From positions 28,768,001 to 28,832,000 of the forward strand of contig OX597833.1 in the NCBI GenBank assembly GCA_951406725.2: a stretch of 64,000 bases of DNA, in the 5' to 3' direction. Of this stretch, positions 21,064 to 55,100 are shown piece by piece. A program made the position numbers and the translations under genes. This DNA is from Octopus vulgaris (Eukaryota). Each line of letters opens with the position of its first letter. The stretch's first letter is position 1. The notes below the pieces were generated by a model. That model made no database searches. It was given only the letters and a program-made list of their open reading frames with translations, and was not told where the DNA came from.

Positions 21064-21331
21064 TTTATACCACGTGTAGTTTCTTTTCTCTTTGAAATCT
21101 ATAAATATATTTCTATTATATATATATATATATATATATATATATATATAATTAGGGCTTAGTAAAATAAATTACTTTGCCACATACTGAACTTAGTAGA
21201 AATAGCAGCCAAAAAAAATTTTCTTAGCATTTCTACTACTTAAAGAAAATTTCTCTCAGATAATGTTTACTCCAGACAGCTCACGAAGGTTTGGGGGTAA
21301 ATACAGAAAAATATCACAAGTACATAGATCG

Positions 21332-21394
21332 TTTGAGTACGTCAACGTTTCAAGATTAGCCAAATAAAATCAGCATTTCTTTCGTCAGCTCAAA
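21332..21394 (-). ncRNA. Type-I hammerhead ribozyme with intact core
   Basis: Reverse complement reads TTTGAG-CTGACGA-AAGA..GCTGA TTTTAT TTGGC..TCTT-GAAA-CG TTGA CG-TA-CTCAAA. Stem I is a perfect 6 bp and the cleavage triplet is GUA. Confidence 0.85.
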
Positions 21395-21702
21395 ATTTCT
21401 TAATTTGGATTTGGAAACACTAAAAAGAAGGAACTTTACCTATCAGCGGACTTGTCGCTTCAGATGAACCACTCCAACTAACAGTGTCAACAAATTCAAA
21501 ATGCGCAGGCCTAAAATTCTGCACTCCCCATTCCACCCACGTGGTCTATCTAGCAAACATTATATTTTAACCGCGAGAACCGAGGCAGTATGACCGAGAG
21601 AAATGAATTATAATATCATACCCTCAAATATAATAATTTTACCCTCAATTGTTGATATATATATATATATATATATGTGTATATATATATATATATATAT
21701 AA

Positions 21703-22672
21703 TGTTACGGACCACCTGCCGTCGCTCGGTCGAACGGAGAATTCGCCACACAGAGAGGACTCGGTGGGGGAATGGCAGCGACGAACTCGAACCGGCGACC
21801 GGAGAGAACGACGACAACAAACAGTAGGAAGAGATACAGAGATACGGCGGAAGGCAATTGGCTACATTTAACAACTAGTTTATGACAATCATTACAACAT
21901 CAAATACATTTAAAGATACATCAGATATATCAAAGAAGGAAACAACAGATCAAAGCATTTAAACAGTATGCAGATGCAATATACAGTTCAGAGACAATAG
22001 TTCGAATCCAATTAAAACAACGATACAGTTCATAGACAAATAAGTTCAGATCACATTAAAGTCCTTCTCTTTTTCTTTAGCACTTATCAATACATTTCAA
22101 CAACTCTTTTTTTCTTTCCTTAATTCACAATGTCTTTTTACTGTCTCATTTCTTTTCCAGCCTTTAGCACTGTTCTTTATAACATATCAACAAGTCCTTT
22201 ACTCAATTCACATTGTTCAATTCTTTTACATAAGTAACACAACTCAATAATCAACACATACCGTACAACAGCCAATGCCTCACACCGTAGTCCATCTCTA
22301 TTAGCTGTTTAATCCTATGTGTATGCCTTCCTCAGCCCCTCATCCTCTCACTGTCTGCCTGTCGCTCTCAACGCTGTCCTGTCACTATCTCGCCTGTCAT
22401 CTCTCATGACTGTGTGTCTGTCTTTCTCTGCGCTTCCTTCGTAATCCTTTTGCTGTCTCTGGCAGAACTACCTGTTGCCAACTCACTCTGTTCCCGACTA
22501 CCTAACAGACTCACATCTCTTTGCTTTTTAAGGGGTTTCCTCGAACTTTCCATGACCGGCACAAATGGAGGGGTCCTTCCAAAAGCCATCACTCTTTCGT
22601 GAATCTGACAGAACAATGGGTTTATTCCAAAAGTAGGTCGCAACCAACTGTCCTTAAATTGAACTCACAACA
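21703..22672. mobile_element. Possible solo LTR
   Basis: Starts TGTT after (TA)n, ends AACA, non-coding. No exact TSD found. Confidence 0.35.
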
Positions 22673-22679
22673 ATATCAA

Positions 22680-22990
22680 ATACAAAATGGGACAAGAACG
22701 CAAAACATCCAGACAGTTAGGTGATACAAAAAGGGACAAAACATCCAGATAGACGATACAAAGAGAACAAGGACGGGTCATTCGAAGATTTTCGCAATTT
22801 CGGCTTATTATTCTTGAGATTGCTCCAATCTGGCCAGCTCCAAGGAAGAACTAAGCTAAGAGCATTAGATTCCTTGGAAGAAAGCAGCGAATGTATACAA
22901 AAAACAAGGACGGAAAAAACAGACAAAGTTACACATATAAATACAATAATAAATACATATACAATAATAACAGGACATAACAACAGGTCT
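22680..22990. mobile_element. Dispersed repeat, probably a PLE-derived terminal fragment
   Basis: Homologous to 55216-55500 (GGGACAAGAACGCAAAACAT..., TTAGATTCCTTGGAAGAAAG). Confidence 0.6.
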
Positions 22991-51415: not shown

Positions 51416-51734
51416 GTATACACACCCCTATATATATACATATATACATGTGCATATGCACATATGCATATATATGCATGTAAATGCATATACACTCAAT
51501 ATATATGTGCAGTACGTACATATATATATATATATATATATATATATATATATATATATATATATATATATACATACATTTATATATATACCCATTTATA
51601 TAACGGACTCTACCGTCGAAAACGACGCATAGGTGTTCAGCGAGAATATAGAAAAACGAATACCAGATAGACAATGAACAACACACTCACATTACTATTA
51701 CTACTATTCACCAATGTTTGCAATTCATTCCCTT

Positions 51735-51940
51735 CACCTGGTGACTCCTCATGTCAGTCCTCAGGTCACCAAAAGCAATATGAATATGAGCATGAGCACG
51801 TGATCAAGCTGAGAAATCACAATGTGTACAATAGTGGCTTGCAGGAAAACTTGTTCTGCTCGTTTTCTTTTTCTATTTTTCTGTAACTGTTCTTCATGAA
51901 AAACCCTTTGAGTTTTGAAATTTTGAAGTTGGAAAAAGCA
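51735..51940 (-). mobile_element. Possible RTE-type LINE 3' end with C2H2-like zinc finger remnant
   Basis: Minus strand gives FHEEQLQKNRKRKRA, then in another frame YCTHCDFSA*SRAHAHIH. Confidence 0.45.
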
Positions 51941-52256
51941 CACTCTCCTCTAGCCTGTACGGTTTCTCGCAAGATTCTGAAAGTTTCTTTCAAGCATTAC
52001 AAATTATCTTACACACACGCGCGCGCGCGCGCGCACACACACACACACACACACACACACACACACAGATAATAGCTTATATACATAGAGAAATTGAGGC
52101 TTAACTAGTCCCTTAGAAGTTAAGTCAATTTCATCCCTCACTAACCCCTCTTTATATATATGTGTGTGCGGGTGTGTTTGATAAGTGCCAACGTACGAAA
52201 CTCTCGGACCTTGAGTCACTCTCTTACTTCTACATATTAATAAAAATGTACATATA

Positions 52257-54404
52257 CAATAATACCTCGTAGTACGAGTTTAATTCGTTCCATGACCGAG
52301 CTCGCTTTACGATTTATTCGCTTTTCAAATCAATTTTCCCCATTGAAATTAACTAAAATATAATTAATCCATTCCAGCCCCACAAAGCCACCCTAAAATA
52401 ATTTTTATGGGTTTTAAAGCAAAAAAGGTGTAGTTACAAGTAAAATGACAGTTATAAAAAAAGAGAATACAGAAAAAATATGTAAACTGACTTGATTAAC
52501 TTAATTATCTTAAAGATTGGACGATTTGTGCGTGGGGATGACGATAGACCAGGTAGGAGGGGGATTACTGTTTGGAAGGAGAATCTCCTTCCATTAAGAC
52601 TTCAGGAAGGACAATTTCTGGCGTGTTTTCTCTCACTTCGCTTAATTTAGGCTCTTTGGACACGCTTTCTTTACTTTTTACACTTGCAGGTCGTTTCATA
52701 AGAAATATATAAAGAGAAGTCTGCTTTTTCCTGCCTTTCAAAATGTTACGAAAATGCGCCAGTGCAGTGTAATTAAATAAAGCAGCTGCACGACCTGTAG
52801 ATACTTTTACAGGATGATATTTCTCTACAAATTCAGAAACATATTGCCATTTTGCCAACACTGCCTTTATGTCAGTCGTAGAGATAGCATGCTCTGCAAC
52901 ACTGTCCTCCGCTACACTGCCAGGCTATATCAATGATTTTACAATGTTGTAGTTTACAATATTGTTGCAGTTTACAATTTTGTAGTGCTCCTTTCAAAAC
53001 TCACGAAGTGTTAGATTTGTATATTCGGCGACTTCAAAACACCGACGAAACAGGTGTTTGATGTACAACTTATTAAAATTAGAAATTACCTGTTGCTCCA
53101 TGAGCTGCAAGATAAGGATGGTGTTTGTTGCGTGAAAGGTACATAACTATTATAAAGTTAAATTCGTTCAGGATATCATTTTCGAGGTTAAGAGGGTGGG
53201 CAGGTTCACAGTCGAGGATGATGAGAGCCTTGACGGGAAGATTGTTCTCCAGAAGATACTTTTTCACTGCTGGTCTAAAGACAAGATTGACTCACTCGGA
53301 GAAGAATTGTCTGGTGACCCAAGCTTTAACGTTTGCCCTCCATATGACCTGCAGCTTCTCCTTCAGGATTTTGTGAGACTTGAACGCTCATGGGTTTTCG
53401 GAATGGTAGACAAGGAGCGGCTTAGTCTTCAAGTCTCCACTTGCATTGGCACAAAGGGCGAGAGGTAGCCTATCTTCTCCTCTGCGGTTATGTTGGTTCT
53501 TCTGGGCATTTTTTCCAAAAAAAGGCCATTTTTCTCACAGTTGAATACTTGTGCGATGTACCCCCCGGCTGCAATGAGCTGACGGAATTCACGCACGAAA
53601 TCTTCAGCTGCCTTCGTATCAGAGCTCGCTGCTTCTCCATACCTGACGGCGCTATGAACACCAGTTCTCTTCTTGAAATTATCAAACCAGCCGCGACTGG
53701 CCTTAAATGCATCCGCTGATGTTTCCTCTGTCGCTGTTCCAGGGTGTTGCTTCAGGATATCCCCATACAGCGCTCGTGCTTTCTCGCAGATGATGGTCTC
53801 CGTAATCGTATTCTCTGCAAGTTACTTCTAGTTGATCCACAGGAGAAGCAATTTTCCGATCCTTTCGTGGACAGATGTGCGTTGCTTAGAGAGCCTGGAG
53901 ATACCCTTTGCTGTTGTAATGGCCTTGATCTCATCCATTCTCTTCAGGATTGTGCAGATCGACGAAGTGCTTCGGTCGTATTGAGGTGTGATGTCCACTA
54001 CACGCATTCCTCTCTCATTTTTATCAATGATTTCTTTCTACAATTCTATCGTAATCAGTTTTTTCTTCTTTTCAGCACTGTCTTTTGCACTAATATTCTA
54101 AGGAGCCATGGCTAGCACAACTAATTATAAAATAAGAGCAAAATATATACAAAAATAAACAAAATTATTTGGGTAAAACATAACAGGGATGCTGCCACAA
54201 CGCGATAAACACGTGAACTGAGCGAGCGGAGGCTGCGCTTGTTGGAAGAGCGTGTGTGAGTTCAGCGTCGACTAGCGGTCGTTTGCATGAAACTCGGTCG
54301 TACTGCGAATTTCCGTTCGTGCTTCAAGACAAAATGTGCACGAGTCTCGGCTTGTACAGCAAACTACTCGTACAATGGTGCACTCGTACTGCGAGGTTCT
54401 ACTG
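52257..54404 (-). mobile_element. Tigger/pogo DNA transposon with decayed transposase
   Basis: TIRs CAATAATACCTCGTAGTACGAGT / ACTCGTACTGCGAGGTTCTACTG with TA flanks. Transposase fragments KKKLITIEL*KEII, FFWKKCP and ALIILDCEPAHP. Confidence 0.9.
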
Positions 54405-54470
54405 TACTCATATTTTGCGTAGTATTTTTCCTTTCTGTATCAACATCCCTATATATACATATAAATATAT

Positions 54471-55100
54471 AAAATTGTTATTAAATCGTGGTTTTGGCCG
54501 TGTTGGCTGCTATTTCTACCTATTAAAGGGTAGTTTTCTTTTGTGTTTAAATGTACACTATTTTAAAATATGAATATGTTGTCTACTGACTATTTATACA
54601 TGCTAGACCACATGTGGTGATATTTATAACGAATATTCGCTACCCTACATATGTATCTTATGAATATGTTCTTAGCATTCTCGAAGATTCGGCTCGGCAT
54701 TGTATTTATTGCCGACTGTAAATGTGCCTGCGCGCGAAGTTTTGAAAAATTATAACATATAATGACGGGGCACGTGTTCTTGTCTCTGAATTATAAGTAA
54801 TTTATTGAGGCCGGTTACTGATGAGAATTCGCCTGGCGATAATATTGTTTTGCTAAATTACCTACTAAAGGATGGCAAATAATCTTATCTTCTAAAGAAA
54901 TTCGAGACCATGTTGATACAGATGTTGATAACCGCTAATAAAAATAACAAGGTAAAAGTTTTTAGTTTTCAATTCCTTCGAAAATTGCTATTAAATCGTG
55001 GTTTTGGCCGTGTTGGCTGCTATTTCTAGCATGCAAAAATTACCTATTAAAGGGTAGTTTTCTTTTGTGTTTAAATGTACACTATTTTAAAATATGAATA
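54471..55100 (+). mobile_element. Non-coding unit with ~110-bp direct terminal repeats (period 510 bp) and a degenerate HHR
   Basis: 54471-54577 repeats at 54981-55100. Internal CGGTTA-CTGATGA-GAATT...AATTC-GAGA...TAACCG at 54812-54934. TA-rich flanks. Confidence 0.65.

Follow-up and report, generated by a model that had tools for sequence, protein, structure and literature searches.

Three short, non-coding elements in the genome of Octopus vulgaris, each built around a type-I hammerhead ribozyme or the remains of one, carry the same short sequence behind the ribozyme. What this sequence does there is the question that the locus raises. The elements, here called units 1, 2 and 3, lie in a 64,000-nt stretch of contig OX597833.1 (assembly GCA_951406725.2, positions 28,768,001 to 28,832,000 of the forward strand), which we refer to as the window, and we use the term box for the shared sequence, YTGGYTGCTATTTCTA. 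Our answer, which we hold to be just probable on balance, is that the units are hammerhead repeats lacking open reading frames (ORFs) that are copied by a TA-targeting Penelope-like element (PLE), and that the box likely helps the enzyme to hold the RNA and to start copying.

The window contains seven matches to the box with two or fewer mismatches, against 0.25 expected, and none of 100 shuffled sequences reaches seven; a Markov background of 6 Mb has no match with one mismatch or fewer. The seven copies are the following.

21197-21212, minus strand: box of unit 1, 125 nt past the cut and 46 nt short of the 3' end of the unit
43575-43590, minus strand: box of unit 2, 44 nt short of the 3' end, within a family-wide conserved block at ~43548-43590
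44062-44077, minus strand: box in the second tandem copy of unit 2 (mismatch scan)
44341-44356, plus strand: box in the inverted piece of unit 2 (mismatch scan; missing from the list in the first-pass annotation)
50070-50085, minus strand: box with one mismatch and no intact hammerhead around it, possibly in a decayed relative of the units
54503-54518, plus strand: box in the 5' terminal duplicate of unit 3 (mismatch scan)
55013-55028, plus strand: box of unit 3, ~81 nt past the inferred cut and 73 nt before the 3' end

The first-pass annotation had the motif recurring in all three units, and these counts bear it out. It also named two hammerhead-free relatives; the one near 50072 is the copy at 50070-50085, and at 34619 there is no match even when three mismatches are allowed. 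By context, four of the seven boxes lie behind a hammerhead, two belong to parts of units 2 and 3 that are duplicated, and the last is that at 50070. Counted from the ribozyme side, four of the seven hammerhead-like sites in the window (three of five by element) have a box 71-125 nt behind the cut, and the sites at 15354 (plus), 11361 (minus) and 41817 (minus) have none. The cut-to-box distance is 125 nt in unit 1, 71 and 72 nt in the two copies of unit 2 and ~81 nt in unit 3, so that the proposed spacing of about 65-120 nt holds as 71-125 nt; it does not extend to the copy at 54503, which belongs to a 5' terminal duplication and has no hammerhead upstream.

Units 1 and 3 share an exact 17-nt word that includes the box (1 of 2000 shuffles), and among 496 tiles of the window only those containing unit 3 or the 50070 box share at least 15 nt with unit 1. 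The stretch around the 50070 box (49960-50340, minus strand) has a TA run on its 5' side and lacks an intact hammerhead. Its collinearity with units 2 and 3 before and after the box is borderline (15-205 of 500 shuffles), with a weak profile match (E 8.3), and a hammerhead remnant picked out there by eye was not supported on testing. In a metagenome collection, the 17-nt box is present at 117 loci from 44 of 64 parts. In none of the 117 do the 250 nt upstream include a hammerhead cut (110 have room for one), none has (TA)6, and a single locus has a weak hammerhead elsewhere; these are chance matches in other organisms and are not informative on the octopus genome.

The units that hold the boxes have the following parts.

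21151..21655, minus strand: unit 1, a 505-nt non-coding element between TA runs with one hammerhead, its body not reliably alignable to units 2 and 3
21332..21394, minus strand: type-I hammerhead of unit 1 with a complete core, predicted cut after 21338 (GUA), from a descriptor scan (core 21388)
21151..21183, minus strand (partner 43930-43969): second block common to unit 1 and the unit-2 family, forming the 3' end of unit 1 (shuffle test)
43531..44271, minus strand: direct part of unit 2, ~1.5 head-to-tail copies of a 487-488-nt monomer, 98% identical
43657..43766, minus strand: hammerhead of the 3' copy in unit 2, with a palindromic stem III and a predicted cut after 43662 (GUC), from a descriptor scan (core 43761)
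43781..43853, minus strand: block of the unit-2 monomer with a predicted hairpin (stem at 43781-43825), from folding and contig depth
44145..44254, minus strand: hammerhead of the 5' copy in unit 2, predicted cut after 44150, from a descriptor scan (core 44249)
44272..44505, plus strand: inverted 5' piece of unit 2, with its first base 3 nt past the cut position and a box inside, ending at a TA run
54471..55101, plus strand: unit 3, a 510-nt monomer present in ~1.2 copies and homologous to that of unit 2
54471-54577 and 54981-55101, plus strand: terminal repeat of unit 3, with the box inside
54811..54938, plus strand: decayed hammerhead of unit 3, with CTGATGA at 54818 and stems I and II kept

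Unit 2 has two consecutive hammerheads 488 nt apart, and units 1 and 3 have one each. The claim of a type-I hammerhead in each unit stands for units 1 and 2, where the motif is complete, and fails for unit 3, in which GAGA replaces GAAA and the NUH triplet is absent; the site is missed even by a relaxed descriptor scan. The 5' duplicate of unit 3 begins 32 nt ahead of the box and leaves the hammerhead out. As had been proposed, the units are ORF-less and TA-flanked: the longest ATG-initiated ORFs encode 34-39 amino acids, and the units abut TA runs, with an imperfect left flank in unit 3. Their GC content is 33-37%, and the build of a long terminal repeat, primer-binding site and polypurine tract is absent. 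Similarity to PLE proteins was found neither in nor beside the three units, and a search of the window and the units with Rfam brought up neither hammerheads nor tRNAs, the hits being weak or driven by microsatellites. The inverted piece of unit 2 is ~235 nt long and ends ~148 nt past its own box. Its start at position +3 from the cut is a single event that fits a self-cleaved template; an alternative cause is the 4-nt microhomology at the junction.

Units 2 and 3 do not have unrelated bodies, as the first-pass annotation had supposed. When their monomers (488 and 510 nt) are rotated to the cleavage position and compared, they are collinear from end to end with the box and hammerhead excluded (241 of 335 columns identical, z 10.3, 0 of 300 shuffles; nhmmer E 5e-6), and the two units evidently hold the box by common descent. 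Only unit 1 is independent. Its global alignments with units 2 and 3 give no signal of homology (z 0.6 and -0.5), and so the three units represent two lineages and not three. Homology of the upstream part of unit 1 to unit 2 was considered and rejected, being significant in two of five scoring schemes (0 and 3 of 200 shuffles) and never against unit 3. The second block (ATTAGGG..TTTGCCAC), which had also been described as common to units 1 and 2, is confirmed for that pair (1 of 1000 shuffles) and is not significant between units 1 and 3 (76 of 1000). In unit 1 the box and the second block stand together at the 3' end and the spacer between them is missing; the pair may have been inherited, unit 1 being a very distant relative, or gained by template switching.

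Adjoining unit 1 is a palindromic element (20645-21060) that has TA runs inside it. In its right arm, 19 of 22 bases agree with the unit-2 hammerhead across stem III, the cut and stem I (0 of 500 shuffles); the left arm agrees less well. The element may have arisen from the same superfamily as a fold-back derivative.

Unit 2 can be followed as a family in public contigs. Part of 43531-44275 is present in 20 of 24 listed runs, from nine studies with four organism labels. For four runs (labels A, B, D and A), contigs were aligned to one unit-2 monomer at 80% likeness, giving 976, 591, 264 and 139 matching contigs with every bin covered; the run with 139 (X14) is only guessed to be RNA, and its contigs are not counted as expression. 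Head-to-tail joints, from 44017 to 43531 or 43539, are found in all four runs. These joints bear on the idea that the units are solo pseudo-long terminal repeats (pLTRs) or 5'-truncated ends of autonomous PLEs, with the box as part of a PLE untranslated region. PLE insertions are frequently 5'-truncated (Craig et al. 2021), and retrozymes, the non-coding hammerhead retroelements, arise from such PLE ends according to Li et al. 2026. However, the 487-nt monomer is joined head to tail both in the window and in the four runs, it has no ORF, and it has no similarity to PLE proteins, and the unit 2/3 family is therefore a closed non-coding unit. We consider the solo-pLTR explanation very improbable for the units as a whole; for unit 1 it is possible.

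The hammerhead of the family varies in a paired manner. Positions 43665/43672 in stem III change from an A-U to a G-C pair (10-26% for three of the runs and 73-84% for the other), and so do positions 43678/43754 at the base of stem II (49-81%). Both GUC and GUA occur as the cleavage triplet. Of the 49 variant rows, 40 are listed, and the 12 core positions are all absent from these. From the paired changes and the absence of listed core variants, the hammerhead of the unit-2 family is judged to be under selection. Where the box of unit 2 in the window differs from those of units 1 and 3, the majority letters of the family agree with units 1 and 3 (43586, 99%; 43590, 56-92% of summed depth). We use summed contig depth for shape along the monomer only, not as copy number. 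It peaks at the box block (~43548-43590), the hammerhead, the hairpin block (43803-43853) and 43870-43990, with troughs between. The hairpin block is several-fold deeper than the rest of the monomer and is the highest peak in three of the four runs. It is likely common to a larger family, because loose contig ends there retain the stem with a different loop. The peaks over the box and over the hammerhead reach similar heights on either side of a trough, and five contigs (records 1, 10, 17, 25 and 26), among the pieces listed (8 per run, of 1994), span from the box to hammerhead stem I or the cut region. Within the unit-2 family, the box is thus not a free-standing, more abundant repeat.

These features place the units in a known kind of element. 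They show the testable features of non-LTR retrozymes together with the insertion signatures of PLEs, and the assignment to the retrozyme or non-autonomous PLE kind is very likely; the kind is known, and the box is undescribed in the literature consulted. The first-pass idea of a new, modular class mostly fails, because two of the three units are one family and the kind has already been described. Its proposal of a retrozyme-like system mobilised by a PLE fares better, being supported by the anatomy, the family data and the accounts of Li et al. 2026 and Cervera and de la Pena 2020. Its reading of the box as a cis signal names a candidate role. In the 2026 preprint of Li, Clavereau and Pollet (bioRxiv 10.64898/2026.07.22.740005), animal retrozymes are derived from PLE pLTRs.

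Like non-LTR retrozymes (PMC7229834; Li et al. 2026), the units are non-coding, low-GC, head-to-tail repeats with one type-I hammerhead per monomer, a monomer size within the limits given by Li et al. 2026 (51-972 bp), a well-folded monomer (z -4.5) and PLEs in the same genome. They differ in that the monomer is 490-510 nt long, against 170-400 nt in the tested invertebrate cases, and in that the copies, known here from sequence, comprise 1-1.5 monomers, lie in (TA)n and show an inversion of the PLE type. They also share a non-ribozyme motif between unalignable bodies, whereas a 2020 review describes metazoan retrozymes as being without a conserved motif that points to a helper.

The PLE signatures are partial tandems, an inverted 5' piece and (TA)n junctions. 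As set out in Craig et al. 2021 (PMC8557442), a partial tandem with an inverted, 5'-truncated copy is the PLE arrangement, (TA)n is the target of Hydra and many Naiad PLEs, and Hydra-clade PLEs carry hammerheads. The pLTRs of that clade, Hydra-1_Obim included, accordingly resemble the units in their (TA)n target, type-I hammerhead with a short stem III, and partially tandem, inverted 5'-truncated arrangement; the units are distinct in being ORF-less and in the distance that separates the cut from the 3' end, 131-187 nt as compared with 55 nt for the PLE of the window. Two further systems are comparable. Non-autonomous Chlamys elements such as MRC1 (Craig et al. 2021, section 10) are likewise non-coding passengers of PLEs, with pLTRs and copies joined head to tail, but most Chlamys are described as lacking hammerheads, and the 3' ends of MRC1-type elements resemble those of their autonomous partner, a link not found here. 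The SINE-like (short interspersed element) hammerhead repeats of schistosomes (PMC6765202) are also short, tandem-prone retroelements that combine a hammerhead with a second conserved cis element, but theirs is an RNA polymerase III (Pol III) promoter, and the units have no consistent A and B boxes and no tRNA match.

The cycle that we favour would begin with transcription of a partial-tandem copy. The hammerheads would cut the RNA into monomers of 490-510 nt, perhaps circularised as in mussel and coral retrozymes. By analogy with the anole PLE, a PLE protein would then nick (TA)n and begin complementary DNA (cDNA) at an internal site of the RNA that lies 44-73 nt past the box. Copying through the monomer junction would yield 1.2-1.5 monomers, and a second priming event would yield the inverted piece, in unit 2 up to the cut position. 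In the anole system, cDNA begins internally 85-92 nt past the hammerhead cut, and the protein requires RNA from the region behind the hammerhead (Frangieh et al. 2024). The units end 46, 44 and 73 nt past the box and 187, 131 and 170 nt past the cut (units 1, 2 and 3, respectively), and the unit 3 distance from the box becomes 59 nt once a 14-nt insertion is discounted. Thus, the element ends follow the box somewhat more closely than the cut. The RNA region of the anole PLE has its counterpart in the part of the units between cut and 3' end, where the box is situated; since the ends also lie near the box, a protein-binding role is favoured.

Both partial tandems duplicate the box at the 5' side, and the duplicate in unit 3 omits the hammerhead. 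This arrangement would also suit a box that is a DNA promoter element, which the partial tandem places ahead of a whole monomer so that it drives the next unit. The box is conserved in sequence and not in fold, as a promoter might be, and both PLE pLTR promoters and Pol III-driven schistosome hammerhead repeats have already been described. One Pol III A-box-like match overlaps the start of the box in unit 3; however, the A box is absent from units 1 and 2 and the 50070 stretch, the B box is absent downstream of the box on the hammerhead strand, and the few hits are at chance level. The units match no tRNA or Rfam entry, and retrozymes seem to be promoter-less according to a review. The duplication itself needs no promoter, because copying past one monomer always duplicates the region beside the start point. 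We regard the promoter as unlikely, and the chance that the box is a reverse transcriptase (RT) site and not a promoter as a little better than even. Two related candidates were rejected: the box as a tRNA or Pol III relic, suggested by a resemblance (no tRNA or Rfam match, no consistent A and B boxes, zero ARAGORN genes), and the units as tRNA-derived SINEs (no ordered A and B boxes with tRNA similarity).

Several observations weigh against a box that serves PLE copying. The argument from end spacing is based on three ends in two lineages, and the inverted piece runs on to ~148 nt past its box. Box position 43581 is polymorphic, differing in 61-72% of summed depth; two other 16-column stretches of the unit 2/3 alignment are conserved like the box (14 of 16); and no conserved hairpin is found at the box (consensus energy -0.15 kcal/mol, four sequences). 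The 50070 box stands without an intact hammerhead, and a contig of run X4 joins 43652 to 43862 with nine letters between, skipping the hammerhead. The paired stem changes come from per-position tables, with same-molecule linkage for stem III only, in one loose-end consensus. Cleavage, transcript ends and circles are predictions, none of them observed, and in the anole PLE cleavage is dispensable for insertion in vitro and RNA ends at the cut were not seen (Frangieh et al. 2024). A further hammerhead element at 41670-41990 (minus strand; core 41817, cut 41739), which ends at a short TA run, has no box. Its tail resembles that of the Hydra-type PLE in the window, and a plus-strand duplicate at 41879-41942 covers stem III, the cut and the tail. 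Neither of the two elements examined for a PLE that carries the box, this one and the window PLE, has it.

The window PLE has the following location.

11230..15480: broken Hydra-type PLE with an inverted structure, RT on both arms and a GIY-YIG-like domain at the C terminus, no box

It has hammerheads of its own at 15354 (plus) and 11361 (minus) and TA at its right end, and both arms stop at the same base, 55 nt past their own cut. The RT motifs QSDKT, LKDHK and FIQFDI..FYPSI agree by eye with printed Hydra proteins, and the RT and C-terminal domain match one 717-position profile; the Hydra assignment is by motifs and profile, not by a tree. A full HMMER search returns 1947 relatives of the RT, and two word-index protein searches and Pfam gave no match. 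A second, decayed Hydra-type RT fragment (39986-40752, minus strand) starts at a long TA run and is split by SINE-like inserts. That the window PLE lacks the box, and that its 3' region aligns with none of the units, likewise tells against the box as a copying signal. For these reasons the window PLE is not demonstrated as the helper, and because Naiad PLEs target (TA)n too, the helper clade is not fixed. The strongest form of the proposal is that several unrelated hammerhead mini-elements and an autonomous PLE share a 16-17-nt RNA signal that binds the PLE protein, with cDNA starting ~45-60 nt downstream; we regard this as doubtful.

Many of the points just listed would be expected of a box with no function of its own, a slowly changing block of an old, abundant, PLE-derived superfamily from which unit 1 acquired the box and tail by template switching or recombination. 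The homology of units 2 and 3, the equally conserved other blocks, the polymorphism of the box and the 50070 copy all suit such a history, as does the adjacency of box and second block at the 3' end of unit 1 with the intervening spacer gone. On the other side, the exact 17-nt word in units 1 and 3, which follows the cut on the hammerhead strand and has a unit-2-like distance from the 3' end, exceeds what passive retention beside unalignable flanks is expected to leave. We think a functionless box improbable and consider it fairly likely that the box is maintained by selection.

The rest of the window is microsatellite-rich and full of retroelement debris. Unit 2 is flanked by related decayed repeats (42834-43009 and 44564-44747) that are 80% alike, one of which has a CTGATGA core word and no complete hammerhead. 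Immediately left of unit 3 is a Tc5/pogo-type transposase remnant (53429-53821, minus strand). Two related copies of a non-LTR element with an APE endonuclease and an RT, at 27286-30453 and 60332-62449, are 80% alike.

In summary, an abundant, probably unannotated family of the retrozyme type shares a 16-17-nt block with a single element that is either unrelated to it or very distant. We found no description of the box in the published literature consulted, and the families may already sit in the repeat library for octopus (Bonar et al. 2026) or the supplements of the Li et al. preprint. As far as that preprint goes, the mechanism of retrozyme mobilisation is left unsettled, and in the only in vitro PLE system (Frangieh et al. 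2024) the protein-binding site is described as lying in the region behind the hammerhead and is not defined. The box, as a short motif that divergent mini-elements retain there, lends itself to mutation in binding and priming assays. Should it be no more than a slowly changing block in a single old family, the result would be an ordinary, unannotated retrozyme family. If it is a shared signal, PLEs would have in it a counterpart of the 3' tail shared between SINEs and long interspersed elements (LINEs), and it would be the first motif linking animal retrozymes to a helper.

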